DNA from: a bacterium
GTDB lineage: Bacteria > Patescibacteriota > Patescibacteriia > Patescibacteriales > UBA12465
Length of the DNA: 64,000 nt
Assembly: GCA_030696105.1 (NCBI GenBank)
Contig: JAUYNJ010000002.1
Location: 3,764 to 67,763 of the forward strand
Direction: 5' to 3'
Position numbers and translations under genes: made by a program. Positions 3,252 to 56,442 of this stretch are shown here, piece after piece. A model generated the notes under the pieces. The model had not been told where the DNA came from and searched no databases. It was given only the letters and a program-made list of their open reading frames with translations. Numbering within the stretch: the stretch's first letter is position 1; each line of letters starts with the position of its first letter.

Positions 3252-4832
3252 ATGAAATACATTCTATACGCTCGTAAGTCTAGCGAAGATAAAAGTAAGC
3301 AAATTTTGTCCTTAGAAAGTCAGGTTAATGAAATGAAAAAACTAGCTAATAATTTAGGGCTAGAAATTGAGTTGGTCTATACCGAAAGCAAGTCGGCTAA
3401 GTTGCCAAACAACAGGCCTGTGTTTTTAGAGATGTTAAAAGTAATTGAAAATAGCTCAGAGGACTATGGCATTATCTGTTGGAAGATAGATAGATTATCT
3501 AGAAACCCCATTGATAGCGGTAAGATTCAATGGTTACTGCAACAAGGTAAAATCAAAGCGATTCAAACATCTGATAGACAGTATTTGCCTAGCGATAACG
3601 TGCTACTGCTAAATATTGAAGGCTCAATGGCTAATCAGTATATTTTAGATTTAAGTAAAAATGTAAAACGTGGCATTCAAACTAAGTTAGAAAAAGGAAT
3701 GTGGCCGAACTTCGCTCCGATCGGATATCTAAATGACGGTAAGGGCGGAATATTAGTTGATACGGTAAGAGCTCGGTATATCAAAAAGATATTTAAGTTA
3801 TATGCGACTGGTAATTATACGATGAAAGAATTAGCTAATTTGATGTATGAATCTGGTTTTAGAAGTAGAAGTAATATTAAATATCATAAAAGCAAAATCT
3901 ATAAACTAATTAATGATTCTTTTTATTGTGGCCTTATGCAATTTCACGGTAAAGAATATGAGGGTAAATATGAAACACTAATATCTAGAAAATTATTTAG
4001 TGATTGCCAAAAAGTAATGGAATTAAAACAACATCCCAAAAAGAAGATAGAGCATTTTCATTTTAGAGGACTAATGACTTGTGAAAAATGTGGCTGTTTA
4101 CTTACTGCCTCAAGGAAGAAAAATAAATATGTTTATTATTACTGCACTAATGGACGAGGTGGTTGTAGCGAGCATAATCACTATCTAAAAGAGGAGGAAG
4201 TGATTAAGCAGATGTCTAAAGTTTTTGATTATATGAAAGTTGATGAAGATGAAATAGAAATGATGCACGCTAATTCGCTAGAGCTGTTAGTTAATAATAA
4301 CCCTGATAGACGTGAGTATCTAGAAGTTAAACACAGCCTTGAAAATGAGCTTAAGAGATTTGAAAATAGAAAAGACGAACTCTTTAACCTGTTGCTTGAT
4401 AAATCTATTTCTAAAGAAGAATTTGAAACTAAAGAATTAATAATTAAAAATGAGATAAATAATTTTACTAAGGCTCTAAAAAAACTAGAGGATGAGCAAG
4501 AAGTGGTGCTGACTGCAGAAACTTTGGAACTTACCAAAGAATTCTTTTTATCCCCTAAAAAGCAGAAAAAAGCGTTTTTGAAAGTTAGTTTAGATGATAA
4601 AAGAAAAATGCTATCTGGACTAGTTTGGAACTTATCCATAGACAACAAAAAATTAGCTAAGGTTAGTTTCAAAGAACCCTTTGAAACCCTAGCTAATTCT
4701 GCTAAAAACACCGATATTGACAATCTGCGGAGAGGGGGAGATTCGAACTCCCGAAGGGCTTTCACCCTTGCCGCTTTTCGAGAGCGGTGCTTTCAACCAC
4801 TCAGCCACCTCTCCTGCTTACTATTGCAATAG
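3252..4832 (+). CDS. Large serine recombinase (integrase)
   Basis: 526-aa ORF. The N-terminus is a resolvase-type catalytic domain (YARKSSEDKSKQILSLESQ, WKIDRLSRN). It is followed by a recombinase domain, a Cys-rich zinc ribbon (CEKCGC...YYYCTNGRGGC) and a long coiled coil. The last ~35 codons are antisense to tRNA-Ser, so the true or ancestral C-terminus is uncertain. Confidence 0.85.
   Translation: MKYILYARKSSEDKSKQILSLESQVNEMKKLANNLGLEIELVYTESKSAKLPNNRPVFLEMLKVIENSSEDYGIICWKIDRLSRNPIDSGKIQWLLQQGKIKAIQTSDRQYLPSDNVLLLNIEGSMANQYILDLSKNVKRGIQTKLEKGMWPNFAPIGYLNDGKGGILVDTVRARYIKKIFKLYATGNYTMKELANLMYESGFRSRSNIKYHKSKIYKLINDSFYCGLMQFHGKEYEGKYETLISRKLFSDCQKVMELKQHPKKKIEHFHFRGLMTCEKCGCLLTASRKKNKYVYYYCTNGRGGCSEHNHYLKEEEVIKQMSKVFDYMKVDEDEIEMMHANSLELLVNNNPDRREYLEVKHSLENELKRFENRKDELFNLLLDKSISKEEFETKELIIKNEINNFTKALKKLEDEQEVVLTAETLELTKEFFLSPKKQKKAFLKVSLDDKRKMLSGLVWNLSIDNKKLAKVSFKEPFETLANSAKNTDIDNLRRGGDSNSRRAFTLAAFRERCFQPLSHLSCLLLQ
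4728..4814 (-). tRNA. tRNA-Ser (anticodon CGA), type II with long variable arm
   Basis: Manual cloverleaf: acceptor GGAGAGG/CCTCTCC, anticodon arm CCGCT-CTCGAAA-AGCGG, 18-nt variable arm, T-arm GGGAG-TTCGAAT-CTCCC, discriminator G. Confidence 0.9.
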
Positions 4833-16973: not shown

Positions 16974-17002
16974 TTGACATATTATAAGAACTCTTATACA
17001 AT
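16974..17002 (+). promoter_or_regulatory. Promoter for tRNA-Glu
   Basis: TTGACA (16974..16979), a 17-nt spacer, then TACAAT (16997..17002), about 30 nt upstream of the tRNA. Confidence 0.5.
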
Positions 17003-17031
17003 AATTTTGAATTCTAATATTACAAAGAAAT

Positions 17032-17103
17032 GGTCCCTTCGTCTAACGGTTAGGACACCAGGTTTTCATCCTGGTAACAGGGGTTCGACTCCCCTAGGGA
17101 CTA
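17032..17103 (+). tRNA. tRNA-Glu (anticodon TTC)
   Basis: Manual cloverleaf: acceptor GGTCCCT/AGGGACT (G1-U72), anticodon arm CCAGG-TTTTCAT-CCTGG, T-arm AGGGG-TTCGACT-CCCCT. Confidence 0.9.
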
Positions 17104-17112
17104 CAAAACAAC

Positions 17113-17139
17113 AAAGACAAGCGCTGCTTGTCTTTTTTG
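17113..17139 (+). terminator. Intrinsic terminator after tRNA-Glu
   Basis: AGACAAGC gct GCTTGTCT followed by TTTTTTGTTTTG. Confidence 0.7.
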
Positions 17140-17276
17140 TTTTGTCATTATCGAGCCGGGAGTCGAACAGGTCAGGAGAGAGACAAGTCTGAGCCGCTAT
17201 TACGGGCGGAGAAGACGTAGGTGAACGTCCGCTAAGCATCCTGGGGGATGCTTAGCGCTGACCAGTGAGCGCGATA

Positions 17277-17294
17277 ACTCCCCCTGGGGACTAC
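17277..17294 (+). repeat. Partial direct copy of the tRNA-Glu 3' end
   Basis: ACTCCCCCTGGGGACTAC compared with tRNA positions 17088..17104, ACTCCCCTAGGGACTAC. Confidence 0.6.
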
Positions 17295-17376
17295 TATCGG
17301 AGAGTTAGTACTAGCTAATTCTTTTTAGTTTTGTAAATGTAAATTCATATTTGCTGGTAAATATGGTAAAATTGAA

Positions 17377-19203: not shown

Positions 19204-20100
19204 TTAATCTATAACCTCAAGCACTCCTACACTTATAAAGTCTCCTTTGCGCGCTTTGATTAATTTATCATATATTTCATTCCATTTTTTAGTTTCAGTA
19301 ATCGTAATACAACCTAAAGAACGGCTGCCTGTATGTAGATACCTCTCTCCTTCGTGTCCAATTCTGAACCAAGTCTTTGCTCGAGATGAGATGTTGAGAT
19401 AATACTGCCCTCCTGAATGAGGGTAATCTGGCAATTCAATATCGTACCATCCTTTTTTCAGTGGTGATTCCTGATGATCCGTGGCCGCATACTCCTCCTT
19501 ATCGATAATTAGCTTCTTCTTGGAAACAGAATACTGAAGATATGCAAAAGGACTATGCTTAGCGTCCGTTAATAGTCGTGAATTATTGTTGTTTTCATTA
19601 TCTAGATGGACAGAGGCCGTTTGATCTTTATATGGACCTTCTAATATAGTAAAATATTCCCGCCCTGTTTCGATATACTCAGATTTCACTTTTAGAAAAG
19701 CAGGAAGGGATGTTGTAGTTCCATCTGTCATTTTTACTTTTAGCCAGCCATTATCAACGTCGGGTATATATTTCATCGACTCAGCGACCAACGCTTTGAT
19801 AGTGATTTCAAATTTAGCAACCGACTTACCCCAATTTTTCCAAAACCGTTTTTCCCGGAGTTCAATCATGTAAATATATCTTTGAGCATTAATATTATTA
19901 GTATCAACTTTAATCACTTTCTCGATATTATTTGTATCATTAAAAAGAGCATCCTTTTCGGTGATAGTAATTTTTGCTTTGACTGAAAAAAATTTTTGAT
20001 CGGTCGGGAAGCTTCCAATTTCTTCTGCAAGTTCAATCGTTTTGCCGACTTTAATTCTCCTATAAATTTGTAAATTTTTATCAAGTATTTCAATGTTCAC
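19204..20100 (-). CDS. Hypothetical protein with a C-terminal Tlde1/DUF2778-like (L,D-transpeptidase-fold) domain
   Basis: 298-aa ORF. The C-terminal ~90 aa contains KGWYDIELP...WFRIGHEGERYLHTGSRSLGCITITE. This matches the remembered H-x(n)-S-x-G-C-I pattern of DUF2778/YkuD-like catalytic sites. There is no signal peptide. The assignment is from memory of the family motif only. Confidence 0.4.
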   Translation of the reverse strand: MNIEILDKNLQIYRRIKVGKTIELAEEIGSFPTDQKFFSVKAKITITEKDALFNDTNNIEKVIKVDTNNINAQRYIYMIELREKRFWKNWGKSVAKFEITIKALVAESMKYIPDVDNGWLKVKMTDGTTTSLPAFLKVKSEYIETGREYFTILEGPYKDQTASVHLDNENNNNSRLLTDAKHSPFAYLQYSVSKKKLIIDKEEYAATDHQESPLKKGWYDIELPDYPHSGGQYYLNISSRAKTWFRIGHEGERYLHTGSRSLGCITITETKKWNEIYDKLIKARKGDFISVGVLEVID

Positions 20101-20188: not shown

Positions 20189-20668
20189 CTAAATTTGTAA
20201 TATGTTTTGACCGGCTAAGAGTGAATGCAATTCTTTAACTTTTCGCAACAAGACCCCAGCATCTGTATAGGCCTGTCTTAATTCTGTTTCAGAAATTCCC
20301 ATAAAATCTCCATATTCAATCCTGTTTCTTTTCTTTCGCATCTGCTGAAATCTGTGAAATTCATTACTTAGTTGTCCATCGAGTAAGATGGCGGCGGCAT
20401 TGATTACAATATAATGATGTCCCTCTCCGCTTGTTCTTGCTCTGTAACCATTAATTAATAATATCGCCTCACAATTTAATCTAATAGAGTCGTAAATGTT
20501 GCTATAAACAATGTCTTCATCGCCCATACCTAGCCCTGATAAGTTCTTGTATGCGAAGTTAAATAACCTGTCTGCTTTTTCAATTTTCATTTCAATTGCT
20601 TGAAGATTCAAGGGGAAGGGTTCAATTATTTTGTTTTCAATTAATGTTTTAAATTCCTGTGTAAGCAT
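20189..20668 (-). CDS. HEPN domain protein (toxin-like partner of the MNT gene)
   Basis: 159-aa ORF. All-helical, with an MRKKRNRIEYG motif typical of HEPN (R..RN...Y). It overlaps the upstream nucleotidyltransferase gene by 20 nt. Confidence 0.7.
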   Translation of the reverse strand: MLTQEFKTLIENKIIEPFPLNLQAIEMKIEKADRLFNFAYKNLSGLGMGDEDIVYSNIYDSIRLNCEAILLINGYRARTSGEGHHYIVINAAAILLDGQLSNEFHRFQQMRKKRNRIEYGDFMGISETELRQAYTDAGVLLRKVKELHSLLAGQNILQI

Positions 20669-21221
20669 ATGGATTACCTTTTAGTACAATAATAGGCGAT
20701 GAAAAAATATTGGACAAAAAATTGTTATTTTCCTTCATTTTTTTGTGAACTTCCAGACTGCTGTAAATGTGATAATTTATTTCTCGCGCAATTTTCCCCT
20801 CCATTAAACTAAGGGCGCTGGTTAATGAATCTTGATTTACATCTCCAATCAACATTAAATCAACGTCACTATTACTGTTTTCGGTTCCCTTAGCTATTGA
20901 CCCAAATATAAATGCGCATTCAACTTTATCAAGTTTATCGATCAGGCTTTTCAATTCGTTTTCTAATCCAATCGTTTTTGAAACTATGCTTTTAATTTCT
21001 TCATAAAGTTGGTGCTCTTTATTTAAGCGAAAGAAACGCATTTTGCCTCGGCGCTCATCTAATAGTATGCCGTCATGTACAAGGTTATCTAAATATTTTT
21101 GATAGTGACTTGGCTCTTTCTGGAGAATACTTGCGATTTCTCTGAAATAATATTCTTTTTCCGGATCTCTCAAAAAGAGCTTAAGAATCTCTCCTCCCCC
21201 ACTTTTCAAAAAATTAAGCAT
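20649..21221 (-). CDS. Nucleotidyltransferase (MNT-type) with N-terminal winged-helix domain
   Basis: 190-aa ORF. NTase motif FIFGSIAKGTENSNSDVDLMLIG (GS-x9-12-D-x-D). The N-terminus is wHTH-like (YFREIASILQKEPSHYQKYLDNLVHDGIL). Confidence 0.8.
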   Translation of the reverse strand: MLNFLKSGGGEILKLFLRDPEKEYYFREIASILQKEPSHYQKYLDNLVHDGILLDERRGKMRFFRLNKEHQLYEEIKSIVSKTIGLENELKSLIDKLDKVECAFIFGSIAKGTENSNSDVDLMLIGDVNQDSLTSALSLMEGKIAREINYHIYSSLEVHKKMKENNNFLSNIFSSPIIVLKGNPYAYTGI

Positions 21222-31810: not shown

Positions 31811-31923
31811 AAGATTAAAATTACTATAAAAAATAAGCTTAAAACCTAGATCGCTACGGATTGAAAAATTCGGCTAGGTTTGCTACTATTATAACATATT
31901 TAATAAATTATTACCAAGCATTT

Positions 31924-33144
31924 ATGGCTAAAGCGAACACTGATCAGAGCATGATTGCGGAAATTTTAGAGCGGGGCGTGGAAAAAATTTATCCTAACGG
32001 CTCTGAATTGCAAAAAAAATTGGAAAGCGGAAAAATATTACGTATTTATTGTGGCTTCGACCCGAGTGCTTCGTCTTTGCATGTGGGTAACGCCATCGCC
32101 TTAGTGAAGCTCGCTCAATTTCAACGTCTTGGTCATAAGATTATATTTTTAATTGGTGGCTTTACCGGCATGATTGGTGACCCAACCGATAAGCAGGCGG
32201 CGCGTAAGCAGCTTACCCGCGAGGAAGTGCTAGCTAACGCTACAAATTTTGTAAAACAAGCCGAGGCTTATATTAATTTTGAAGGAAAAAATTCAGCGGA
32301 AGTTAGATATAACAATGAATGGCATGATAAGTTGAACTTTACTGATTTAATTGGCCTCTCTTCACACTTTACTGTTCAGCAGATGATTGCTCGCGATATG
32401 TTTAAGAAAAGATTAGAAGAAGAAAAACCAATTTTCTTACATGAGTTCTTATATCCACTTGCTCAAGCCTATGACAGTGTGATGCTAGATGTTGACGTTG
32501 AAGTCGGTGGCAATGATCAGATGTTTAATATGATGTGCGGACGCGATTTGATGAAGGCAGTCAAGAATAAAGAGAAGAGCGTCTTAACAATGAAGCTCAT
32601 CACCGATAATGAAGGTAAAAAGATGGGCAAAAGTGAAGGCAATGTCGTAATGCTTGATTCTGATGCGGCTGACATGTACGGTCGCGTGATGTCTTGGCCT
32701 GATAGCGTCCTGGCAGCTGGTTTTGAGCTCTGCACTTTACTGCCAAGAGAAGAGGCGGATACGCTCGCGCAAGCAGTTAATGATAATCCGCGTGATTCAA
32801 AGATGCGTTTAGCCTTCGAAATAACGAAAATTAACCATGGCGAGGAAGCGGCTCAGGCGGCGCAGGATAAATTCGTCAAAACTGTGCAAAATAAAGAAAT
32901 ACCAGATGAGATTGAGGTGAAAAGCCTCGCCGCTGGTAAGTATAAGATTATCGATTTATTATCGGCTTTAAATTTGAGTGCTAGTCGCGGTGAAGCTAAG
33001 CGTTTAATTGAACAGGGTGGTATTAAGATTGGTTACGGCGACTCAATGAAGACTTTTACCGACAGCCAGGCAGAAGTCGAGGTAATTTCAAATTTAATTG
33101 TTCAGCGCGGCAAAAGACAGTTTATAAAAATATCGACCGACTAA
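31924..33144 (+). CDS. tyrS: Tyrosyl-tRNA synthetase
   Basis: HIGH-type motif (FDPSASSLHVGN), KMSKS-type motif (KMGKS) and a C-terminal S4 domain. The ORF track starts at a TTG at 31861; the ATG at 31924 is the more likely start. Confidence 0.9.
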   Translation: MAKANTDQSMIAEILERGVEKIYPNGSELQKKLESGKILRIYCGFDPSASSLHVGNAIALVKLAQFQRLGHKIIFLIGGFTGMIGDPTDKQAARKQLTREEVLANATNFVKQAEAYINFEGKNSAEVRYNNEWHDKLNFTDLIGLSSHFTVQQMIARDMFKKRLEEEKPIFLHEFLYPLAQAYDSVMLDVDVEVGGNDQMFNMMCGRDLMKAVKNKEKSVLTMKLITDNEGKKMGKSEGNVVMLDSDAADMYGRVMSWPDSVLAAGFELCTLLPREEADTLAQAVNDNPRDSKMRLAFEITKINHGEEAAQAAQDKFVKTVQNKEIPDEIEVKSLAAGKYKIIDLLSALNLSASRGEAKRLIEQGGIKIGYGDSMKTFTDSQAEVEVISNLIVQRGKRQFIKISTD

Positions 33145-33146
33145 CT

Positions 33147-34832
33147 ATGTATTTACAGGAAATAAAAGAACAATTAGCATCAATGCTGGAGGTCGTGCCG
33201 ACAGATTTTGTTTATCCTCCCGCTGCTGACCTCGGAGACTTAAGTCTGCCCTTATTTGCCCTAGCTAAGACGCGTGGTCTTAGTCCGGTGGAGTTAGCGA
33301 AGGAGCTCGCAGCTTCACTGAAGGAGTCGCCTAAGTTTATTGGTGTCGTAAAAAATGTTAACGCAGTTGGCCCTTATTTAAATTTTTATCTTGATAGTGG
33401 CAACCTTGTTTCGAGTGTGATTTCCGATATCGAAAAATTTGGGATTCGTTACGGTGAAAGTGATAATGGCCACGAGGAAATAGTAATGGTGGAATTTTCT
33501 AACGCCAATACTCATAAGGAATATCATATTGGCCATCTGCGTAATCTGTTTTATGGAGACACTATATCTCGAATGCTCCGTTTAAACGGTTATCAGACAA
33601 TTCCTGTTTCATATATTAATGATTTTGGTATTCACACAGCGAAGACTCTATGGAATTGGCGTCGGAACCCCGAATTTGCAGCTCAGGATGGTCCCAAGGG
33701 CCGCTTACTCGGTGAATGCTATGCGCAGGCCGCGAAAGAGTTAGAGGGCAACGAAGAAGCTAAGGTCGAATTAGCAGCGGTAATGAAGCAAATCGAGAAG
33801 CGTAAAGGTGAGATGTATGAACTCTGGAAAGAAACCAGGGAGTGGAGCATTTCATACCTCGATGAAATCTACCAGCGCCTCGGTATTAAATTTGAAAACA
33901 TTTTCTATGAGAGTGAAGAAATTGATGAAGGCCTGCGGATGGTAGAGGAATTTTTGCAGCGTGGTGTGTTTATCCGTAGTCAAGGAGCCGTTATCGCTGA
34001 CCTGGATGAATATGGGCTTGGCGTTTTACCTATCATCCGCTCTGATGGCACGGCCCTGTATCCAGCTGCTGATTTAGCGCTGGCTCGTCGCAAATTCCAA
34101 GCTTACGATATTAATGAGTCAATATACGTAGTTGATATCAGGCAAGGCCTGTACTTTAAGCAATTAGGCAAAATATTTGAGTTAGCCGGTGAAAATTTCA
34201 ATATCACTCATCTTGGCTATGACTTTGTTACGCTTAAAAATGGGATGATGTCATCTCGCACCGGTAATGTCATTACTTACGCCCAGATTATAAACGAAGC
34301 TTATACGCGTGCAGAGAAAGAAATAATCACAAGGCACGAAGATTGGGATGCAGAGAAGGTGAATAAAATTGCCGAGGCGCTAACCGTTGCTGCTTTGAAA
34401 TTTGAAATGCTCAAAATAAGCGCTGATAAAGTCATTACTTTCGATATGGAGGAGGCCCTACGTTTTGATGGCTTTACCGCCGCTTATCTTCAATATACCG
34501 GCGCTCGTATTGCGAGCATCCTGCGTAAAGCGGACGAAAATATAGCAGCGGATTATAGTCTTTTAATTCACCCCAAAGAACACGCCCTGGCTATGCAGCT
34601 ATCTCAGTACCAAGAGGCGCTCGTTAAAGCGGGAGCACAGCGAGACCCTTCAATTATTGCGCGGTATCTGTTCGAGTTAGCGCAGGTCGTTAATGACTAT
34701 TATCATGAAGTAAATATCTTAAAAGCAAGCACTGATGAAAAAATTGCCCGTTTAGGCTTACTAAGAGCGGTAAAACAAGCGCTAGCTAACGGCTTCCGCA
34801 CGCTCGGCTTTGCCTATTTGGAGGAAATGTAA
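33147..34832 (+). CDS. argS: Arginyl-tRNA synthetase
   Basis: 561-aa ORF. SNANTHKEYHIGHLRN (HIGH), MSSRTGNV, and a C-terminal anticodon-binding domain ending in M. Confidence 0.9.
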   Translation: MYLQEIKEQLASMLEVVPTDFVYPPAADLGDLSLPLFALAKTRGLSPVELAKELAASLKESPKFIGVVKNVNAVGPYLNFYLDSGNLVSSVISDIEKFGIRYGESDNGHEEIVMVEFSNANTHKEYHIGHLRNLFYGDTISRMLRLNGYQTIPVSYINDFGIHTAKTLWNWRRNPEFAAQDGPKGRLLGECYAQAAKELEGNEEAKVELAAVMKQIEKRKGEMYELWKETREWSISYLDEIYQRLGIKFENIFYESEEIDEGLRMVEEFLQRGVFIRSQGAVIADLDEYGLGVLPIIRSDGTALYPAADLALARRKFQAYDINESIYVVDIRQGLYFKQLGKIFELAGENFNITHLGYDFVTLKNGMMSSRTGNVITYAQIINEAYTRAEKEIITRHEDWDAEKVNKIAEALTVAALKFEMLKISADKVITFDMEEALRFDGFTAAYLQYTGARIASILRKADENIAADYSLLIHPKEHALAMQLSQYQEALVKAGAQRDPSIIARYLFELAQVVNDYYHEVNILKASTDEKIARLGLLRAVKQALANGFRTLGFAYLEEM

Positions 34833-34854
34833 TTAATCAACTTACAAATATTCT

Positions 34855-36234
34855 ATGGCTCAAGAAAAAGTAGAAGATCAGACAATGGAGAAAATTGTAT
34901 CACTCGCCAAGCGACGTGGCTTTGTATTTCCGGCTTGTGAAATCTATGGTGGCCTTGGTAGCAGTTTTAGTTACGGGCCATACGGTACCGCTTTGAAAAA
35001 TAATATTAAGGCTTTGTGGCTCAAGCGCTTTGTTGATAGTCGTGATGATATGTATGCCATTGATGGTCCGATTATCCTACATCCCGCCCTTTGGAAAGCA
35101 AGCGGTCACACCGAAGGATTTAATGATGCGATGGTTGATTGTAAAAAGTGTAAAAAACGCTTCCGCGCCGATCACTTAGTGGAAGAAGCAACAGGCAAAG
35201 ATCACGAGGGCGACTTAGAAAAACTGAACACCGCTTTAGCGGCAGGCATTCCTTGTCCAAATTGTAAGGCTCAGCAATGGACGGAGGCTCGTTTCTTCAG
35301 TTTGATGTTTAAAACCGATATGAATGGACTGGATGAGCCGGTTTATCTACGTCCGGAAACAGCCGGGGCCATTTTTGTCGAGTTCAATAATATTTTAGAT
35401 ACCATGCGTCCGAAATTACCATTCGGGATTGCTCAAATCGGTAAAGCTTTCCGCAACGAGATTGTTACCGGCAACTTTGTCTTCCGAGTGCGTGAGTTTG
35501 AGCAGATGGAAATTGAATATTTTATTGATCCTGAAAAAGAATGGGAAGATGTTTTTGAAAATTTATTAAAAGAACAGGAAGCGTTTTGCCGCGACCTTGG
35601 TTTAGCTGAAGGTTCATTTACTCGCCGCGAGCACGCGCCCGAAAAGTTGTCTCACTATTCTCGCAAAACAGTTGATATGGAATATAATTTTCCCTTTGGC
35701 GTCAAAGAATTGTTCGGTTTAGCTCACCGTGGCGACTTTGACTTAAAAGTACACTCCGAGCACTCAGGCAAGAAACTTGAGTTCTTTGATGCTGTTAGTA
35801 ACAGGAGATTTATACCACATGTTATTGAGCCAAGCTTTGGTGTCGAGCGCGCCTTGCTCGCAACTCTGCACGCCGCGTATAACGAAGAGACGCTTGAGGG
35901 CGGTGAAGAGCGTGCCGTTTTGAAATTACCTTATCAACTTGCCCCGGTTAAAGTTGCAATCTTCCCTTTACTTAAAAATAAAGAGCCACTAGTTGAAAAG
36001 GCCCGTGAAATATACTCAGAATTGCGCTCGGTCATTACTTGTGAGTTTGATGATAATGGAAATATTGGTAAACGTTATCGTCGTCAGGATGAAATCGGTA
36101 CGCCTTTTTGTGTGACAGTTGACTTTGATACTCTGGAAAATAATGAAGTGACAGTGCGCGAGCGCGATAGTATGAAACAAGAAAAAGTTTCTGTGTTTGG
36201 GCTAAAAGAATATCTGCAAGCGCGACTAAAATAA
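34855..36234 (+). CDS. glyQS: Glycyl-tRNA synthetase (dimeric class II type)
   Basis: 459-aa ORF. N-terminus RRGFVFPACEIYGGLGSSFSYGPYG, class II motifs (FRNEIVTGNFVFRVREFEQME; GVERAL) and an anticodon-binding C-terminus. Confidence 0.9.
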   Translation: MAQEKVEDQTMEKIVSLAKRRGFVFPACEIYGGLGSSFSYGPYGTALKNNIKALWLKRFVDSRDDMYAIDGPIILHPALWKASGHTEGFNDAMVDCKKCKKRFRADHLVEEATGKDHEGDLEKLNTALAAGIPCPNCKAQQWTEARFFSLMFKTDMNGLDEPVYLRPETAGAIFVEFNNILDTMRPKLPFGIAQIGKAFRNEIVTGNFVFRVREFEQMEIEYFIDPEKEWEDVFENLLKEQEAFCRDLGLAEGSFTRREHAPEKLSHYSRKTVDMEYNFPFGVKELFGLAHRGDFDLKVHSEHSGKKLEFFDAVSNRRFIPHVIEPSFGVERALLATLHAAYNEETLEGGEERAVLKLPYQLAPVKVAIFPLLKNKEPLVEKAREIYSELRSVITCEFDDNGNIGKRYRRQDEIGTPFCVTVDFDTLENNEVTVRERDSMKQEKVSVFGLKEYLQARLK

Positions 36235-36439
36235 ATATTAATTATTGCTAAATAAAATTTACAAAGAGGAGCGAAGAGCTCTTTTTTGTTTTTTGTGAAA
36301 AAAACTTCAAAAACTATTGTATTAAAATTGTGAAGAGTGTATAATATTGATAGTTAAGTTAAATTTATTTTAAAAAGATTTATTTTAAATTTTTTTAAAA
36401 ATATAAAATGGGAAATTTCCCAGAAAGGAGGTGAGCAAT

Positions 36440-36625
36440 ATGGCTACTGCAAAAAAAACTGCAAAAAAAACTGTAAAAAAGACAGCAAAAAAACCTGCTG
36501 TTAAGAAGGTTGTAAAAAAAGTCAAAAAGGTGGTTAAGAAGGTGGTAAAGAAGGCTGCTCCTAAGAAGGCTGTCAAAAAGACCGCAAAAAAACCAGCTAA
36601 AAAGACTGCTAAAAAGAAGAAATAA
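36440..36625 (+). CDS. Lys/Ala-rich histone H1-like basic protein
   Basis: About 61 aa of KKTAKK / VKKVVKK repeats. AGGAGG lies 8 nt upstream of the ATG at 36440. A TTGTAT-17-TATAAT promoter lies upstream. The antisense ORF is a low-complexity shadow. Confidence 0.6.
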   Translation: MATAKKTAKKTVKKTAKKPAVKKVVKKVKKVVKKVVKKAAPKKAVKKTAKKPAKKTAKKKK

Positions 36626-36743
36626 TCTTTTTCTTGTTTTGAAAATTATACAAAAGCTGCGCTGTAAGCGCGGTTTTTGTTTACAGCAGACAGTTCATTA
36701 ATAATTTTACGTGTCTTCAGGCCTAATCTGCTACACTGTGCCT

Positions 36744-37577
36744 ATGCGAAAATATTTATTCTATCTTTTTGCCTTCTCTCTTTGTGTAATTGTATGTCTT
36801 CCGCAACAAACGTCTGGGCCGGAGGCAATATTTTTTGATGTGGGCCAAGGTGACGCCTTTGCTTTGCGTACTCCCGGTAAACAAATTATCTTGGTTGATG
36901 GCGGGCCGGATAATTTACTTCTACCGCAGCTTGGGCAATGGCTCGGTTACCAAGAGCGTGAAATTGATTATATGATTCTGTCTCATGATCACGCCGATCA
37001 CGCCTCTGCTTTACCTGAAATTGCTGAACGGTACAAAGTGATGCGCGCTATTTTACCTGTTCCGACTGAGAGCAGTGACTCATCGGCACTTATTTCTGCA
37101 CTCAAACGAAGTGATAGTGAAATTATACAGGTGAATGAAAGTGCCTGCTTTGATTTAGAAATTAATTGTCGACTATGTGTCTTGTCGCCGGGGGGCGAGT
37201 TTGCGGAAGCGAAAGACTTGAATGAATCTTCACTGGCCCTGCATATCCGCTGTGCTGGTTTATCGATAGTTGCAGCCGGTGACGCCACGAAAGATCTTGA
37301 GCAATCATATTTACCTAAATTTAGCGATTGGCAGGCAGACGTGTTCAAAGCCTCGCATCATGGCGCTAATACATCAAATGACGATTCATTTCTGACTGCT
37401 GTGAATCCGGAGATAATGGTAATTTCTGTAGGATTAAACAATTCTTATGGACATCCCTCGCCGTCTGTTATCAACAGGGCGAAGAATCAAGGGGTCCGTA
37501 TATGGCGTACAGACCACCAGGGTTCAGTCAAAATTTATGCTAAAAACAGGGAATTATTCATTGAAAGTTGGCCTTAA
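36744..37577 (+). CDS. ComEC/Rec2-related metallo-beta-lactamase domain protein (stand-alone, signal-anchored)
   Basis: FFDVGQGDAFALRTPGKQIILVDGG, LSHDHADHASAL, ASHHGANTS. The ORF track starts at a GTG at 36711; the ATG at 36744 (MRKYLFYLF) is the likelier start. Confidence 0.75.
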   Translation: MRKYLFYLFAFSLCVIVCLPQQTSGPEAIFFDVGQGDAFALRTPGKQIILVDGGPDNLLLPQLGQWLGYQEREIDYMILSHDHADHASALPEIAERYKVMRAILPVPTESSDSSALISALKRSDSEIIQVNESACFDLEINCRLCVLSPGGEFAEAKDLNESSLALHIRCAGLSIVAAGDATKDLEQSYLPKFSDWQADVFKASHHGANTSNDDSFLTAVNPEIMVISVGLNNSYGHPSPSVINRAKNQGVRIWRTDHQGSVKIYAKNRELFIESWP

Positions 37578-37610
37578 TATTGATACAGATTAGGCCTGTG
37601 GATAAGCTTA

Positions 37611-37638
37611 TTGACAAGATAGTTTTAATGTGATAAAT
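37611..37638 (+). promoter_or_regulatory. Promoter of the candidate sRNA
   Basis: TTGACA (37611..37616), a 16-nt spacer, then ATAAAT (37633..37638) preceded by TG. A perfect DnaA-box 9-mer TGTGGATAA lies at 37597..37605. Confidence 0.5.
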
Positions 37639-37644
37639 TACTTA

Positions 37645-37822
37645 GTTGCTTAATCGATCAAAAAGGCCGTTTAGAACGGGTCAGGCACGACAAGCATGGG
37701 GACTTTCTCACTAGGGTTTTCTGGGCCACCACTGTCGCTTATAAATGTATAGGCGCTAATGGTGGTCTCGGCAATGCCTAGGAGAAATTTTCTTGCCTAC
37801 CCGTTTTAGCCGGTCTTTTTTT
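37645..37822 (+). ncRNA. Candidate structured small RNA (rod-like, unknown family)
   Basis: The region is free of + strand ORFs and has its own promoter. Nested helices: 37676-81/37799-804, 37684-87/37794-97, 37704-09/37782-87, 37711-15/37777-81, 37723-31/37760-68, and an apical hairpin 37736-43/37748-55. Four G-U pairs are valid only on the + strand. The closing helix is followed by T7 (37816..37822). Confidence 0.4.
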
Positions 37823-37826
37823 ATAC

Positions 37827-37854
37827 AAAAACCCATCGTGCAAACGATGGGTTT
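37827..37854. terminator. Bidirectional terminator hairpin
   Basis: AAAACCCATCGT gcaa ACGATGGGTTTT, just downstream of the stop of the minus-strand VanW-like gene. Confidence 0.7.
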
Positions 37855-37865
37855 TAATATTTGTT

Positions 37866-39698
37866 TTAATTACTCGGTGTACTTGTGACGACATCGGGTG
37901 TGGTGGTTGCGCTTGTTTCCGTGTCGACGACAGGCTCAGGAGTTTTGCCGACAAGACAGACTTCTTGCCATGGTACATAGTGAGAGGTGAAGCGGCGCTT
38001 TACTTCGGGAGTTGTCGTTGCTCCTTCTGGATAGATAACGGTGTAATCGAACCAGGCGTCAGCGCCATTGTGTGCCCGCTCGGTACACTTTCTTTCACCG
38101 GGTTTAAGTTCATCGGTTTCAATTATTTTAGTGGGCGGGGGTTTTACAATATTATAGATGACGGGATAAGTAGTGGTGGCGACGCGGCCATCGTTTGTAC
38201 CCCAGAAATCGAAATACAAATCATCACCTTCGACGCGCGCTTGAATAAGTATATTTTTGCCGGTGTCATTAATAAAGCGGAAATCTGGCCACGGGTCATA
38301 AATAGTAGCGTCAGTGCCTGCCGGTTCGTAATATGACACACGGTAGGAATGATTCTGACGAGCAGTAACAGGCAGACCAGTTGATAATACTGAGCGGAAT
38401 AAAGTTGTGCCTACTTGGCAGAGGCCCCCGCCGTATTCAGGTATTGTTTTATTATTCTTAATAACTAACTCAGGCAAGTACCCACCGCTTGCATCAATGT
38501 TTCCGAGTGACTTTACCAGCGAAAATTCTTCTTCCGGCTTTATCACTAGACCGTGTAAGGCTGCAGCGCCAACATCAATGTTGTGTCGTCTATTTTTTGG
38601 TGAACCTGCAAAACTAGAATGACCAGTGCCAAGGATTTCTTTAATGTCGAAGGAGGCGGTTTCGTCTGATGGAATGGTAGTAAAGGCGAGGTCAATAGTT
38701 TGAGGTTCGGTTGCGCCCACGTATTGCTCCAGAATCAAGCGAGAGCTAGTGGCAACTTCAATTTCATAACCCTCTTTTCCTAGTTGCCAACTGCTAACTT
38801 TGTCATTTTCAATTTCAAAGCGAGGTGTTTGTGCTTCGATGTTAACTAGTGGTGCAACGGTATCTTCCAAATATGTTTCTATGCGGGCAAGGTTAAAACC
38901 GAGGGCGAGCTCAGAGCCACTTCTATTCACCGCCAGCCAGCTGGCGATATCACCGCGGCTTACCGGCAATTCCTTTTCTTGAAAAACAAGTGTTAGATCA
39001 GTCGCAGTTAGCTCGTCAGCTTGTTTCTCTAAACCACCCAAATCACGGCGATAAATATCGGGATAATCAGTACGGGTTGTTAGCTCAATTGCAGAACTAT
39101 CAAATGAGCGTAAACGTTTATCGAGTTCTTGAAAAAAATTATCCCAGTCTACTTCTTTGCCCGGACGTTCCTCGGCAATGGCGATGGCTTTATCCGAGAA
39201 GACAAAGGCGGCATCTACGGCAGCGTTAGTGCTGTCGGGGAAAGTTTCAACGATGAAGTCCCGTATCTTTAATTGATTAACAGTGTAAGCAGGCACTAAG
39301 GAGGTGGCGGTATGGCGCAGTTTTCTCAGCCAAGCGCTTAGCCTTGATTGCCTAGTGTGAGCGGCTAGTTTAGTTTCTAAATATGCCACGTCAAACTGGA
39401 AGTTGTTATAAGATAGGCCGGAATCAAAGGATGCGGCAATGGCGGGAAGATCAGCTACTTTGTCGTTATATGCTAAGGCAACCCCCTCGGCTTCAAAGAG
39501 GCGTATCTCGTTCGCAATTTTTGACGCAGCCTCGGAAACGCTTAGACCACTAATAGCAATATTTCCGTAGTAGAAATTATCCGGTAACTTATCGCTGTTA
39601 GTTTTACTAAACAAAAATAGGCTGAGTAATATTAAAAAGACCACCAAAACGGCGATCATTGCGATGACGGGTCGAGTCAGTTTCTTCATATTTTTCAA
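37866..39698 (-). CDS. VanW-family protein with N-terminal membrane anchor
   Basis: 610-aa ORF. TM helix (VIAMIAVLVVFLILLSLFLF) and VanW core motif GGGLCQVGTTLFRSVLSTGLPVTARQNHSY. Confidence 0.8.
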   Translation of the reverse strand: MKNMKKLTRPVIAMIAVLVVFLILLSLFLFSKTNSDKLPDNFYYGNIAISGLSVSEAASKIANEIRLFEAEGVALAYNDKVADLPAIAASFDSGLSYNNFQFDVAYLETKLAAHTRQSRLSAWLRKLRHTATSLVPAYTVNQLKIRDFIVETFPDSTNAAVDAAFVFSDKAIAIAEERPGKEVDWDNFFQELDKRLRSFDSSAIELTTRTDYPDIYRRDLGGLEKQADELTATDLTLVFQEKELPVSRGDIASWLAVNRSGSELALGFNLARIETYLEDTVAPLVNIEAQTPRFEIENDKVSSWQLGKEGYEIEVATSSRLILEQYVGATEPQTIDLAFTTIPSDETASFDIKEILGTGHSSFAGSPKNRRHNIDVGAAALHGLVIKPEEEFSLVKSLGNIDASGGYLPELVIKNNKTIPEYGGGLCQVGTTLFRSVLSTGLPVTARQNHSYRVSYYEPAGTDATIYDPWPDFRFINDTGKNILIQARVEGDDLYFDFWGTNDGRVATTTYPVIYNIVKPPPTKIIETDELKPGERKCTERAHNGADAWFDYTVIYPEGATTTPEVKRRFTSHYVPWQEVCLVGKTPEPVVDTETSATTTPDVVTSTPSN

Positions 39699-39886
39699 TG
39701 GTTATCGGTTTGCAGCAGCTCGTTAAGCAGGCTGGCCTTATCGGTACCGATAGAAAAGTTAAGCTTTTGTCCGATTTCGGGTATCTGGGGCAGCTTTTCT
39801 TTCGGCCAATAAATTATATTGTTCTCGTGATCCTTAAGAATCACTTGGTCATCGCTAAAACCAGCGACTACTAATTCATAATCCAT
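39695..39886 (-). CDS. Small hypothetical protein (DUF3006-like?)
   Basis: 63-aa ORF overlapping the start of the VanW gene by 4 nt. Only a weak resemblance to DUF3006, from memory. Confidence 0.4.
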   Translation of the reverse strand: MDYELVVAGFSDDQVILKDHENNIIYWPKEKLPQIPEIGQKLNFSIGTDKASLLNELLQTDNH

Positions 39887-39887
39887 A

Positions 39888-40304
39888 TTAATCTTTAAAA
39901 TCTATTTTGATATTTTCTGGCTCAACCTTATTAAGAGTGACGGTGAGGACACCATTTTCTAATTTTGCATCAACTTTTCGGCTATCAACTTCGGACGGAA
40001 GAATAATTGAGCGTGAAAAAGGACCCCAGTAACATTCTCGGTAAAGATAATTATCATCGTCCACTGCGTGTGGTTGACTTCTGGTGCCGGAGATTGTGAG
40101 TAAATCGTGATGCAATGAAACTTTTAAATCTTCTGGTTTGGCGCCGGCGATGGTGGACTGAATAACAATTTTCTTATTTGTATGATAAACATCAACTGAA
40201 AGCTGCCCTTCAGAGGCGACGTCTTTTTCCATCCATTCGCTTATTGCCGAAGTGTCTTCATCAGCAATCATGTGGCGTTCTCGGCCAGAAAAAAATTGTA
40301 ACAT
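39888..40304 (-). CDS. Hsp20/alpha-crystallin small heat-shock protein
   Basis: 138-aa ORF with an alpha-crystallin domain (LSVDVYHTNKKIVIQSTIAGAKPEDLKVSLHHDLLTISGTR...AKLENGVLTVTLNKV). Confidence 0.85.
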   Translation of the reverse strand: MLQFFSGRERHMIADEDTSAISEWMEKDVASEGQLSVDVYHTNKKIVIQSTIAGAKPEDLKVSLHHDLLTISGTRSQPHAVDDDNYLYRECYWGPFSRSIILPSEVDSRKVDAKLENGVLTVTLNKVEPENIKIDFKD

Positions 40305-40320
40305 AGAAGTAAAAATAATG

Positions 40321-40394
40321 TGGGCCCGGCCCGACTCGAACGGGCGGCCTTTACGATGTCAACGTAACGCTCTAACCAACTGAGCTACGAGCCC
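40321..40394 (-). tRNA. tRNA-Val (anticodon GAC)
   Basis: Manual cloverleaf: acceptor GGGCTCG/CGGGCCC, anticodon arm TTACG-TTGACAT-CGTAA, T-arm GCCCG-TTCGAGT-CGGGC, discriminator A. Confidence 0.9.
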
Positions 40395-40465
40395 TTTATT
40401 TTCTTATTATATTGTATAGGTGCGAACTTGGCAATACAATCAGTACTTTCCGAACGAATTATACG

Positions 40466-40541
40466 TGGTGCGCCTAGATGGAATTGAACCATCGACCCCC
40501 GCTTTATAAGAGCGGTGCTCTCACCCCTGAGCTATAGGCGC
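40466..40541 (-). tRNA. tRNA-Ile (anticodon TAT) with encoded CCA
   Basis: Manual cloverleaf: acceptor GCGCCTA/TAGGCGC, D-arm GCTC-AGGGGTGA-GAGC, anticodon arm CCGCT-CTTATAA-AGCGG (U33, A37), T-arm GATGG-TTCAATT-CCATC, then ACCA. Confidence 0.8.
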
Positions 40542-40567
40542 CGGTCAAATCTGGTTCTGTTATATCA

Positions 40568-41731
40568 TTAGCCGAAATTTTTATCAAGCTTCGCTTTAAT
40601 TGGAGCTATGACTTCATCGTTCCAATGATCGCTTGAAATATCAATCAAGGCGGTCGCAATTTTATGGTTACCAACTCCTTGCCATACCTTAAGAGCCTCT
40701 ACAGCAGACACACCTTTCGCGGCAAAAGCAGACACACGATAAGAGCCGTCGTGTGGCGAGGCAAAGGCTATGAGAACTAGTTTTGCTTCCGGGACGCCGG
40801 TTAAAATTTCATCAACAATGTCACTTAGGTCAATATTAGCAGTATCGAAGCTCTCAGTTTCTTCAGGGGTGAGCAGCGACCAGAGTAAGCGCTTCTCCTT
40901 GTCACTTTGTAGATTATTTAGAAGCTTGCCCCAGAGCTTAAGCGCTGAGAGCGGCCGTGAGCGATAGAGTTGGCTGATCATCTCTTCGCGGCGAGCACCA
41001 TAGCCAATGAGCTTTGAGCTAGTAAGCAGAGTCCGTGGTGTTAAGTTGGCGGCTTTAAAGTTTTTAGTCTTACTGATAATACCAGCAAGCAGACATGTGG
41101 CCACATCCTCATCGAGACCGCCGTTTTTGTCTTGTTTCAGTAAGTTATAAATAATTTCGGCGCTCGATACAACGTTTAAATCAAGGTAGTTAATCTGTCC
41201 AAATTCTTCATTGCTGGCCTGATGGTCAATATTAATGATTGTCGTCTTGTAAAAAAATTCAACGTTACTATCGTAGATTTGTCCGAGCGATTCGAGATCA
41301 GGGGTGTCAATCACAAAAATTAAATCATGTTTAAAACCGCTAGAGGAGGTGCTGATGTCTTCTGGTTTAAACCAACCCTTTTCAGGGGAGATAATAAAAT
41401 TTAAATGCTGGCCATCAACGCTATATTTAATCTGATTAATAACGGCCTGACTAATGTCTAGCGAGACAATGAATTTACGTAGATTTTTGAGTGAAGTTTG
41501 AATATTATCAAAGCCTGGTAAAAAACTCCAGACAGAGACTGCTTTGTCCTTGTTGTTTTCGTCTGATTCCAGCCAGGCAGCAACTTCAACTTTCTTGCCG
41601 GACTTTTTCAGGAAATTAAAAAGGGCCAAGGATGAAGCGATAGCGTCACCATTCCAGTCAGCGTTAAAGGCGATAAGGATATTTTCTGCCTTCTCAATCT
41701 GTTTATAAATCTGTTCTTCGGGGGTCAACAT
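40568..41731 (-). CDS. DHH-family phosphoesterase (NrnA-like oligoribonuclease/pAp phosphatase)
   Basis: 387-aa ORF. DHH motifs NADWNGDAIASSLAL and INIDHQASN (DHH replaced by DHQ), plus a DHHA1-like C-terminus. Confidence 0.7.
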   Translation of the reverse strand: MLTPEEQIYKQIEKAENILIAFNADWNGDAIASSLALFNFLKKSGKKVEVAAWLESDENNKDKAVSVWSFLPGFDNIQTSLKNLRKFIVSLDISQAVINQIKYSVDGQHLNFIISPEKGWFKPEDISTSSSGFKHDLIFVIDTPDLESLGQIYDSNVEFFYKTTIINIDHQASNEEFGQINYLDLNVVSSAEIIYNLLKQDKNGGLDEDVATCLLAGIISKTKNFKAANLTPRTLLTSSKLIGYGARREEMISQLYRSRPLSALKLWGKLLNNLQSDKEKRLLWSLLTPEETESFDTANIDLSDIVDEILTGVPEAKLVLIAFASPHDGSYRVSAFAAKGVSAVEALKVWQGVGNHKIATALIDISSDHWNDEVIAPIKAKLDKNFG

Positions 41732-41851
41732 GTCACTTCAATTAAGTTAAAAATTTTGTATTTAGCAACCCTTTAATATATAATTAATTTTAGCTAGAGT
41801 CAAGGCAAAATACGGTTGACGCAATGGCATATTTTTGGTAATTTTATAGGT

Positions 41852-44461: not shown

Positions 44462-44466
44462 AGCAT

Positions 44467-44850
44467 ATGACTCTAAAAAACTATTTAATCGTGATGGGCC
44501 TGATGACAGCGGTGTGCTGGGGCATATTTGTTGTCATGTTAAACCTGATTGATCCGACTTCAACGAATTGGCTGGGCTTTGTCCTCTTTTACATCGCTTT
44601 ATTCTTGTCACTTTCTGGCACTGCCGCTCTCGTTGGTTTTGTTATCCGTTTCGTCGCCTTGCAAAGAGAGTTAGCTTTTTATGCCGTGTCCACCGCCTTC
44701 AGACAGTCGTTCCTTTTTTCACTATTTATCGTGATATCCTTGAACCTGCTGCACTTTAGTCTGTTTACCTGGTTAAACGTTATCTTACTGCTTATGATTT
44801 TTGCCATCCTCGAACTGTTTATCGCCAGTTATAAGAAAAGCCGTATTTAA
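44467..44850 (+). CDS. Small polytopic membrane protein (hypothetical)
   Basis: 127-aa ORF with four hydrophobic helices, tightly packed between valS and pheS. Confidence 0.5.
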   Translation: MTLKNYLIVMGLMTAVCWGIFVVMLNLIDPTSTNWLGFVLFYIALFLSLSGTAALVGFVIRFVALQRELAFYAVSTAFRQSFLFSLFIVISLNLLHFSLFTWLNVILLLMIFAILELFIASYKKSRI

Positions 44851-44855
44851 AAAAT

Positions 44856-45881: not shown

Positions 45882-45886
45882 AGATT

Positions 45887-55935: not shown

Positions 55936-55980
55936 GTCGGGCTGCCCGGATCCGCCAGCTGGCGGAGAACCGGGATGATC
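55936..55980 (-). repeat. Pseudo-copy of the tRNA-Pro(CGG) T-arm and 3' acceptor, with a 16-nt perfect palindrome in the T-loop
   Basis: On the + strand, TGTCGGGCTGCCCGGA is identical to 55991..56006. It is followed by TCCGCCAGCTGGCGGA, which replaces ATT of the T-loop, and then by GAACCGGGAT as in the tRNA. Confidence 0.7.
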
Positions 55981-56189: not shown

Positions 56190-56253
56190 TTCGCCAGCCG
56201 GCGGACTGGCCGATTTTCCCAGGCCGACAGTTCGCTCGGGTAAGCCGAAAAAG

Positions 56254-56272
56254 TCGGGGTGCCGGGAATTGG
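56254..56272 (-). repeat. 19-nt exact copy of the tRNA-Pro(GGG) 3' end (T-loop to discriminator)
   Basis: GTCGGGGTGCCGGGAATTG at 56254..56272 equals 56442..56460. Confidence 0.8.
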
Positions 56273-56442
56273 TCACGGTCGCTAAGCCTCGCTTGTCACG
56301 TATAGCTCGCTTCGCTCACACGTGACTGCGCTCGCTAAGCGCCCCGACCCGGCCTCGCGATGCCTTCGGCATATCGCTCCGGCTTTCAATTCCGGACACG
56401 AGCCACGCAGGTGGCTCGTTCACCTCTCCTCGTTTCACTCGT

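Follow-up and report, generated by a model that had tools for sequence, protein, structure and literature searches.

A probable new family of small non-coding insertion elements in the 3′ parts of tRNA genes of Patescibacteria

Islands and prophages that carry tyrosine integrases of the T-loop sublocation class integrate at tRNA genes. In these islands a direct repeat that extends from the T-loop to the 3′ end of the tRNA flanks the insert, the copy carried by the element restores the tRNA, the former 3′ end is displaced together with its trailer, and repeated insertion leads to arrays. Elements that lack an integrase and are mobilised in cis (CIMEs) are kilobase-sized remnants of integrative and conjugative or integrative and mobilisable elements, have a known partner integrase and do not contain a conserved RNA-like core. 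Here we describe an insert at positions 17105-17294 of a 64-kb stretch of DNA (the window), which directly follows a tRNA-Glu gene. It appears to resemble the islands of the T-loop class in all the respects listed above, but it comprises only about 190 bp, has no integrase or other genes, and contains a structured non-coding module together with an inverted copy of the T-loop. Among tRNA-integrating mobile DNA it is novel in being far smaller and non-coding, in its structured module and in carrying an antisense copy of its target. Our data demonstrate that presence of the insert is polymorphic among relatives, that it belongs to a family with covarying structure, that both of its tRNA-derived segments track the adjacent tRNA, and that no protein is encoded in cis. 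We consider it probable that the insert is a copy of an undescribed family of non-coding insertion elements of about 170-210 bp in the 3′ parts of tRNA genes of Patescibacteria. The host belongs to Candidatus Falkowbacteria: TsaD, encoded about 730 bp from the tRNA, has its best match in HGW-Falkowbacteria-2 (92% identity).

The insert and its immediate surroundings contain the following features.

16974..17002, + strand: sigma-70-like promoter of tRNA-Glu (TTGACA-17-TACAAT; promoter scan), the sole promoter-like site 5′ of the insert on this strand
17032..17104, + strand: tRNA-Glu(UUC), intact (ARAGORN; 63 bits with Rfam)
17083..17093, + strand: T-loop and 3′ strand of the T-stem, GTTCGACTCCC, target of the antisense segment (inverted repeat, 11/11)
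17088..17104, + strand: 3′ segment of the tRNA (position 58 to the 3′ end) that is repeated downstream (repeat search), putatively the copy supplied by the element
17105..17145, + strand: T1, a perfect-palindrome, terminator-like, bidirectional hairpin of 41 nt (inverted-repeat and terminator scans)
17146..17157, + strand: spacer, where other family members have a small GNRA-capped hairpin, H0 (family alignment)
17158..17168, + strand: anti-T segment GGGAGTCGAAC of 11 nt, exact reverse complement of the T-loop/T-stem at 17083-17093
17170..17175, + strand: 5′ strand of helix P1, GGTCAG, which pairs with 17258-17263 (GTTGG/CCAAC in other members)
17187..17216, + strand: helix P2, GUCU-GA-GCCGC...GCGG-GA-AGAC, with tandem G·A pairs
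17194-17209, + strand: CCGC/GCGG hairpin
17214..17229, + strand: hairpin GACGU-AGGUGA-ACGUC
17230..17257, + strand: hairpin b, a perfect 12-bp stem CGCTAAGCATCC/GGATGCTTAGCG with the loop UGGG
17258..17263, + strand: 3′ strand of P1, CTGACC
17264..17276, + strand: conserved 3′ motif AGTGAGCGCGATA (family consensus G(U/C)GAGCG(C/A)GA plus 1-2 nt), directly abutting the tRNA copy
17277..17294, + strand: T-copy ACTCCCCCTGGGGACTAC of tRNA positions 58-76(+1), probably the displaced original 3′ end of the tRNA
17295..17334, + strand: T2, a terminator of 40 nt, homologous to trailers in L141, L185 and L128 (L numbers denote loci in related genomes and metagenomes)

The GC-rich module extends over 17146-17276, and windows of 100 nt reach a GC content of 58-59% in the insert versus 25-30% in the flanks. 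A preliminary description of the window had already pointed to this GC-rich segment behind tRNA-Glu and its terminator, and to the hairpins CGCTAAGCATCC/GGATGCTTAGCG, GACGT/ACGTC and CCGC/GCGG closed by GGTCAG/CTGACC, all of which we found where it had placed them. It had also correctly recognised the near copy of the tRNA 3′ end: ACTCCCCCTGGGGACTAC differs from the last 17 nt of the tRNA, ACTCCCCTAGGGACTAC, by a single mismatch and a single indel and occurs nowhere else in the window, where no match is expected by chance. It missed the anti-T segment GGGAGTCGAAC and its equivalent in a second insert behind tRNA-Pro(GGG) (see below), and it did not consider that the terminator after tRNA-Glu appears to go with the inserted DNA.

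In 39 syntenic loci from relatives every tRNA was scanned for a downstream copy of its 3′ end together with an antisense T segment. The closest relative (L123, TsaD identity 92%), L124, L126 and about 20 other tRNA-Glu loci lack the insert and have only a terminator at this place. A clearly homologous insert follows tRNA-Glu in L125; in L130 it is retargeted to tRNA-Cys and accompanied by a second tandem unit and a truncated third one, and L136 and L148 contain decayed, AT-rich versions. The window and L123 are 99% identical over 16985-17108, comprising promoter and tRNA, and unrelated from 4 nt past the tRNA; synteny between the two returns only past a variable island. In L141, where tRNA-Glu is free of the element, the trailer immediately behind the tRNA is homologous to T2, as are the trailers behind the copies in L185 and L128. 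Empty tRNA-Glu sites are thus present in L123, L124, L126 and L141, and the integration footprint postulated in the preliminary description is supported by the absence of the insert from the closest and most other relatives and by the likeness of the sequence after the copy to an element-free trailer, even though this trailer is unusually conserved.

The blocks of identity begin at or near tRNA position 58, immediately 3′ of the GTTCR sequence that is nearly universal in the T-loop; this places the join in the T-loop, putatively near 57|58. T1 would then belong to the element, and T2 would be the native terminator. We favour a geometry in which the element brought T1 and the replacement tRNA end because of the homology of T2 to the L141 trailer, the duplicated T1 in L175, and the break between window and L123. 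It is favoured and not proven, since the T2-type trailer is so well conserved. The opposite model, in which the element inserted 3′ of a native T1 and brought the tRNA copy and T2, was considered since T2 equals T3 in L130 and the window and L185 share T2; it is disfavoured by the same three observations. In the favoured geometry the junction of an excised or circular form would read ...GAGCGCGATA joined to ACTCCCCTAGGGACTAC-T1, and that of the empty site tRNA-Glu ...GGGACTAC joined to TATCGGAGAG....

A pattern free of tRNA sequence was derived from the conserved core of L125 and L130 and run on the JGI metagenomes. It returned 22 loci, of which 13 were true members and nine were chance matches in a protein-coding family. 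Pattern scans of IMG/VR gave only chance matches in coding regions and no copy of the element in viral contigs. The family comprises about 20 copies of about 170-210 bp with the same layout, in genomes and metagenomes of Patescibacteria, at tRNA-Glu(UUC), Glu(CUC), Gly(GCC), Gly(UCC), Cys(GCA), Ala(CGC) and Pro(GGG). The tRNA is followed by T1 (a long perfect-palindrome terminator of variable sequence), a small hairpin (often GUUA- or GAA-capped), AG, anti-T, P1, P2a/P2 (with tandem G·A pairs and GGAA-type loops), hairpin b (variable in sequence, maintained in structure), the 3′ strand of P1, CUGGACAAGUGAGC, hairpin c, GCGAGCGCGA plus 1-2 nt, the tRNA copy (about position 58 up to exactly the tRNA 3′ end), and a second terminator. 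The core module ends in G(U/C)GAGCGCGA.

A covariance model built from 15 members (R1) detects the Glu copy of the window with 101.7 bits (E = 8e-28) and also the more divergent copies L143:1-123 and L185:2762-2934. These two form a subtype with P1 as AGACGG/CCGTCT and an end of ...GGACAACGAG-hairpin-GAGGCGG before the tRNA copy; in L185 the divergent element adjoins the tRNA, and an island remnant with a Fic gene and a type-A element are stacked behind it. Tandem copies (L130) and nested copies (L175) occur. L175 has two units, each preceded by nearly the same T1, with the intact unit nearest to the tRNA, an internally deleted unit further out, and a remnant of a serine-recombinase island between them. 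No protein is encoded in any copy, and the Glu element contains no open reading frame (ORF). Homologous inserts at other tRNAs, tandem and nested copies and the lack of coding capacity support the miniature integrase-less family that the preliminary description had suggested. Covariance models of Rfam 15 matched nothing but the tRNA at the gathering threshold in the window copy, so that a known RNA such as SRP RNA, which the preliminary description had named as a refuting case, was not found; at E ≤ 10 neither the window copy nor the best member gave a credible match (SRP, 6S, tmRNA, RNase P, ribozymes, HEARO and others). Full-text literature searches found no description of such elements, and the family is apparently undescribed so far.

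Both tRNA-derived segments follow the tRNA at which the element resides. The 3′ copies are identical to the adjacent tRNA over 15-19 nt. Anti-T forms 9-15 contiguous Watson-Crick pairs with the T-arm of the adjacent tRNA in ten of eleven copies, whereas its runs with the copy carried by the element comprise only 4-8 bp. L175 deviates, since one mismatch there shortens both exact runs to 5 bp. Anti-T even mirrors peculiarities of the tRNA, as GGAATCGGAC does for the unusual GTCCGATTCC loop of Gly(UCC). It varies with the tRNA, while the remainder of the module is constant.

The RNAalifold consensus of the family has five helices with 32 pairs, 21 of which show compensatory changes. As controls we used 500 column shuffles and pairing partners that were slid by 1-3 columns. 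In the alignment 95.6% of the paired cells can pair, compared to 82.5% in the shuffles (none of the 500 reached the observed value) and to only 29-43% with slid partners. The window copy keeps P1 with different letters, GGTCAG/CTGACC instead of GTTGG/CCAAC. Taken alone, the Glu sequence does not fold significantly (z = -1.5, + strand). The strong hairpins noted in the preliminary description are supported by covariation, but this support comes solely from the family and not from single-sequence folding. The tRNA-sense strand is favoured by the excess of G·U (17) over A·C (4) pairs and by lower free energies, and GNRA-type loops (GGAA, GGGA, GUUA) and recurrent tandem G·A motifs are found on this strand only. 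As judged from these substitution patterns, selection acts on a single-stranded form of tRNA-sense polarity. GC skew was uninformative on strand or replication orientation.

The window contains a second element of the same design, on the minus strand behind tRNA-Pro(GGG), and a smaller derivative close by.

56441-56512, - strand: tRNA-Pro(GGG)
56253..56440, - strand: second element
56385-56399, - strand: anti-T of this element
56288-56297, - strand: GACAAGCGAG within this element
56253-56280, - strand: copy of the T-arm and 3′ end, 25/28 identical to the tRNA, with GGGTTC changed to GTGACC
55936..55976, - strand: copy of the T-arm and acceptor 3′ end of tRNA-Pro(CGG), in which the 16-nt palindrome TCCGCCAGCTGGCGGA replaces AAT of the T-loop

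Antisense T segment, structured GC-rich body (folding z = -3.8) and tRNA copy follow in the same order as in the Glu insert. Both inserts share the motif GCTTAGCG..ACC.GTGA (two matches, none expected) and GACAAG(C/U)GAG. An alignment with MAFFT gave nothing convincing, and R1 does not detect the Pro(GGG) insert. The relationship of the two inserts that the preliminary description had noted thus holds for architecture and short motifs, but as far as can be aligned it is not one of homologous sequence, and the GGCGGAGAA string that it had seen shared with the copy at 55962 carries no weight. The Pro(GGG) element has no T1 and is located within a Pro-Ala-Pro tRNA operon, so that co-transcription with the tRNAs is to be expected of necessity. 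The operon is bounded by a promoter-like site at 56559-56531 and by a hairpin with a T-run near 55890-55913, which was read by eye and is absent from the list of the terminator scan. The copy at 55936..55976 is probably a stripped-down relative of the element, and three of the eight tRNAs in the window carry a copy or remnant.

Several smaller observations concern this operon. The GC palindrome TCCGCCAGCTGGCGGA (55951-55966) has a near copy in the leader of tRNA-Ala (56192-56205) and is identical to hairpin c of the distant family member L194; the tRNA copy of L148 holds a different palindrome. Such recurring palindromes may be tiny mobile or slippage-generated hairpins. The spacer between tRNA-Ala and tRNA-Pro(CGG) (56089-56112) is 79% complementary over 24 nt to a part of the Pro(GGG) element (56299-56322) and may have been left by a further element; in L183 a full element is located at tRNA-Ala.

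Compared to the islands of the T-loop class, the direct repeat is present (17088-17104 versus 17277-17294, and exact repeats of 15-19 nt in relatives), as is the insertion polymorphism, but no integrase was found in the element, and its neighbours are housekeeping genes or unrelated cargo. With CIMEs it shares the non-autonomous nature, the att-like repeats and a presumed mobilisation in trans; it differs in size, and no partner element is known. Miniature inverted-repeat and palindrome-associated transposable elements (MITEs and PATEs, e.g., of IS200/IS605) are similar in size, are multicopy, rich in hairpins and free of ORFs, have short imperfect inverted termini (here anti-T versus the T part of the copy) and insert 3′ of a fixed motif (here GTTCR). 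The termini of our element, however, are derived from the target and change with the tRNA, there is no fixed small target-site duplication, and no parental insertion sequence or transposase was found in about 60 loci. For an IS200/IS605 PATE or omega-RNA, hairpins are present and the sequence is variable, with no match in Rfam and neither TnpA nor TnpB among the neighbouring ORFs scanned.

The bridge (seek) RNAs of IS110/IS1111 are likewise structured non-coding RNAs of about 170-190 nt in a mobile element and have a target-complementary segment. Our element, in contrast, lacks an adjacent DEDD recombinase and recognisable target and donor loops; its single target-complementary segment is located at the 5′ edge instead of in an internal loop, and its target duplication of 15-19 nt compares to a 2-nt core in IS110/IS1111. 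Attachment (att) sites that fold as single strands (integron attC; attP of CTX-phi, used by host XerCD) have a structure that is conserved over sequence, are strand-specific and have no recombinase of their own, and anti-T together with the copy could similarly fold into a mimic of a double-stranded target. By inspection, T-loop and anti-T match the consensus of the attC core sites (RYYYAAC...GTTRRRY) at six of seven positions, but the identity block starts from position 58 and not at TT, so that the crossover would not be at G|TT; there is no dif-like site, and no IntI was seen, although no search was aimed at IntI.

Islands with a large serine recombinase (LSR) use the same tRNA hot spots in the same genomes and stack with the small elements in alternating layers, but differ in crossover, in an attP-spanning gene and in their ends. 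They were found at tRNA-Glu in the following loci.

L191:10228-11766; L175:5662-5733; L185:797-898; also L176, L183, L188, L128, L131, L133, L138, L194: LSR-island loci at tRNA-Glu

In L176, L183, L185, L188 and L191 the island is located between the tRNA and 'GACTAC-T1-element'. The island of L191 has 11.6 kb. Its LSR ORF extends antisense into tRNA-Glu and, in the integrated form, terminates in tRNA-antisense codons (...VVPRGVEPLLPG*). The far end encodes a conserved peptide (VVLKS...EIEKWVEVLG*, about 26 codons), which is the C-terminus of the recombinase in the circular form; these loci thus also document LSR islands with a recombinase gene split across attP. Crossover in these islands takes place within GGGAC|TAC, and the resulting duplication is limited to about 6 nt. 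The hallmarks (LSR gene, GGGAC|TAC, C-terminal exon end) are present in the islands of L191, L175 and L185 and not in the small element, which is no remnant of LSR islands, because of this crossover and the unrelated ends. The LSR was also rejected as a mobiliser of the small element, as att arms and crossover differ. In L128 (3421-3560) an LSR island joins, at its far end, a remnant of the element, with the fusion at GGAC|AAGTGA, and the conserved CTGGACAAGTGAG motif of the element seems to have served as a secondary LSR site there. The window itself has an LSR ORF at 3252-4832 (+ strand; Resolvase, Recombinase and Zn_ribbon_recom domains) that runs antisense through the whole tRNA-Ser(CGA) at 4727-4814 (- strand). 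Synteny with L124 and L125 ends at 4727, so that an island integrated at the 3′ end of tRNA-Ser reaches the start of the window.

How could such an element move? In the integrated state the order would be tRNA positions 1-57, a replacement for 58-76 that keeps the tRNA intact, T1, spacer or hairpin, anti-T and module, followed by the displaced original 58-76 and the native terminator. Movement would most likely occur by recombination between the tRNA-identical segment of the element and a tRNA gene, catalysed by an enzyme supplied in trans and not encoded by the element. Homologous or homology-facilitated recombination may aid the spread between genomes; the 72-nt tRNA would serve as the anchor, and the copy of 15-19 nt would provide the second arm. 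On the sense strand no promoter was found between T1 and the module, and transcription would thus be by read-through from the tRNA promoter; the copy in the Pro operon would necessarily be co-transcribed. T-loop, T1 and anti-T are predicted to form an 86-nt hairpin (-43 kcal/mol). Because anti-T spans the junction, matches only the uninterrupted tRNA and can enter this hairpin, it would be the best candidate for target recognition or site formation. A protein-less, self-targeting unit, whose single-stranded module (RNA or DNA) pairs with the T-loop via anti-T and recruits a host or trans-encoded enzyme for its insertion, is a reading that we regard as rather doubtful.

A number of observations weigh against a mobile element of this kind. 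T1 is located 5′ of the module and should limit its transcription. RNA is the simplest reading of the single-stranded form, with single-stranded DNA as the alternative, and sequence cannot decide between the two. L179 and L182 have cores of about 99% identity and different T1 and T2, a pattern that suggests gene conversion between resident copies rather than recent transposition including T1. The T2-type trailer is 85% conserved between L141 and L128 compared to 71% for the coding flanks; it could itself be mobile, with L141 as a post-excision site. That anti-T tracks the T-loop need not reflect function and could equally be due to conversion between inverted repeats that lie close together. 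Neither the copies nor their neighbourhoods yielded a recombinase, reverse transcriptase or nuclease, and no autonomous relative came to light, for which reason mobility is deduced from distribution alone. Pfam scans of the neighbours (window, L177, L182, L183, L191, L194) revealed housekeeping genes, cargo genes and LSRs only.

Other explanations were weighed against the insertion-element family. The module could be a guide nucleic acid (RNA or a folded single strand), with anti-T (perhaps also the 3′ tRNA-identical segment) programming an enzyme encoded elsewhere for action on the tRNA gene, in a logic akin to IS110 bridge RNAs, to the guide/cleavage-site pairing of IS200/IS605 and to the folded att sites of CTX and integrons. 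Anti-T spans the junction, fits the intact target more closely than the element's own end and changes with the tRNA in an otherwise constant module; a conserved, strand-specific structure of the size of a bridge RNA, the lack of a cis-encoded protein and a join just 3′ of the near-universal GTTCR also fit. Yet no IS110, TnpA/TnpB, IntI or Xer-type gene was seen near any copy (no search was aimed at IntI), no donor-binding guide is recognisable, there is no omega-RNA or HEARO match in Rfam, and a target duplication of 15-19 nt is unlike the outcome of IS110 or IS605; a nuclease guided by the 3′ copy would moreover cut the carrier genomes too, as the tRNA is restored. We therefore hold a guide function to be unlikely. 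The TnpB/Cas12-like variant with a 3′ guide was rejected, since the restored tRNA is self-targeted and the scaffold-proximal bases mismatch. By eye, a box C/D or H/ACA guide, the internal guide sequence of a group I intron, a retroviral-type primer-binding site, a piece of tmRNA and an inverted tRNA pseudogene could all be discarded, because motif or geometry does not agree.

A functional small or tRNA-like host RNA in tRNA trailers and spacers, with patchiness due to gain and loss, appears still less probable. Such an RNA might serve in processing or quality control, act as a sponge, or be a read-through transcript whose tRNA positions 1-57 refold onto the downstream copy, and the 86-nt hairpin would indeed free the tRNA body to pair with the copy. 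GNRA loops and tandem G·A pairs on the sense strand, co-transcription of the Pro copy within a tRNA operon and strongly conserved cores between diverging flanks are consistent with such an RNA; its absence from the closest relative and most genomes, its residence at different tRNAs in different genomes, the tandem, nested and decayed copies and the strong terminator 5′ of most copies speak against it. The preliminary description had offered a tRNA-linked non-coding RNA as an alternative to mobility, and a covarying sense-strand module was found, but it does not exclude a mobile element. We see very little chance that the insert is a functionless footprint, i.e., attL and attR arms left after internal deletion of a large island. 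A duplicated tRNA 3′ end is the classic sign of integration, LSR islands occupy the 3′ ends of tRNA-Glu and tRNA-Ser here and in relatives, and the element itself has deletion derivatives (one unit of L175; 55936-55976 in the window). Against this, about 20 copies share a compact layout and a covarying, sequence-conserved core over six tRNA species, the GGGAC|TAC crossover, ~6-nt duplication and C-terminal-exon far end of the LSR islands are unlike the ends of the element, and a search of about 60 loci revealed no larger island with repeats of the T-loop type at its ends. Chance similarity or an assembly artefact can be regarded as already refuted. Contigs assembled by Logan from the source sample do break inside the tRNA, but one contig of this independent assembly (run SRR13727540) spans T-arm, insert and copy with identical sequence, so that the Glu insert is no artefact of assembly; motif and repeat counts are far above those in shuffles, and homologues occur in many independent assemblies.

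The breaks in the Logan contigs SRR13727540_968 and _401 are within tRNA-Glu at 17059-17087, just before the T-loop position that differs among tRNA-Glu alleles (GTTCGAC versus GTTCGAT), and are probably due to another tRNA-Glu allele that is present in the sample, rather than to an empty site.

Genomes of the candidate phyla radiation (CPR)/Patescibacteria are tiny and poorly understood, and a multicopy, structured, non-coding element of tRNA genes would be a new component of them; it is also a likely cause of assembly breaks and of mis-called tRNA fragments. If the element is self-targeting, changes in its own sequence would suffice for retargeting to a new tRNA, and it would be a programmable insertion system occurring in nature that differs from CRISPR-associated transposons, IS110 bridge RNAs and IS605 guides. 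With anti-T as a true guide it would offer a minimal model of nucleic-acid-guided insertion at a universally conserved site; if anti-T is no guide, the family would show how a tiny element can reside in an essential gene by means of a spare gene end and its own terminator.

The region 3′ of the displaced tRNA end is a variable island of low GC content (17335-~21400, up to 22960), which L125 lacks and for which L123 has a different one. No recombinase and no flanking tRNA repeat were found there. Its content includes unknown ORFs, a weak Tlde1-like match (19204-20100), a UDG, and an overlapping ORF pair (20189-21221), of which the downstream member is a nucleotidyltransferase (PF01909/PF18765) and the partner has no Pfam match. 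Elsewhere in the window, genes for aminoacyl-tRNA synthetases are clustered at 31861-48307 (Tyr/Trp-type, Arg, class II, Val-type, PheS, PheT), and a second Tyr/Trp-type synthetase gene (56794-57927) adjoins the tRNA array and the 16S rRNA.

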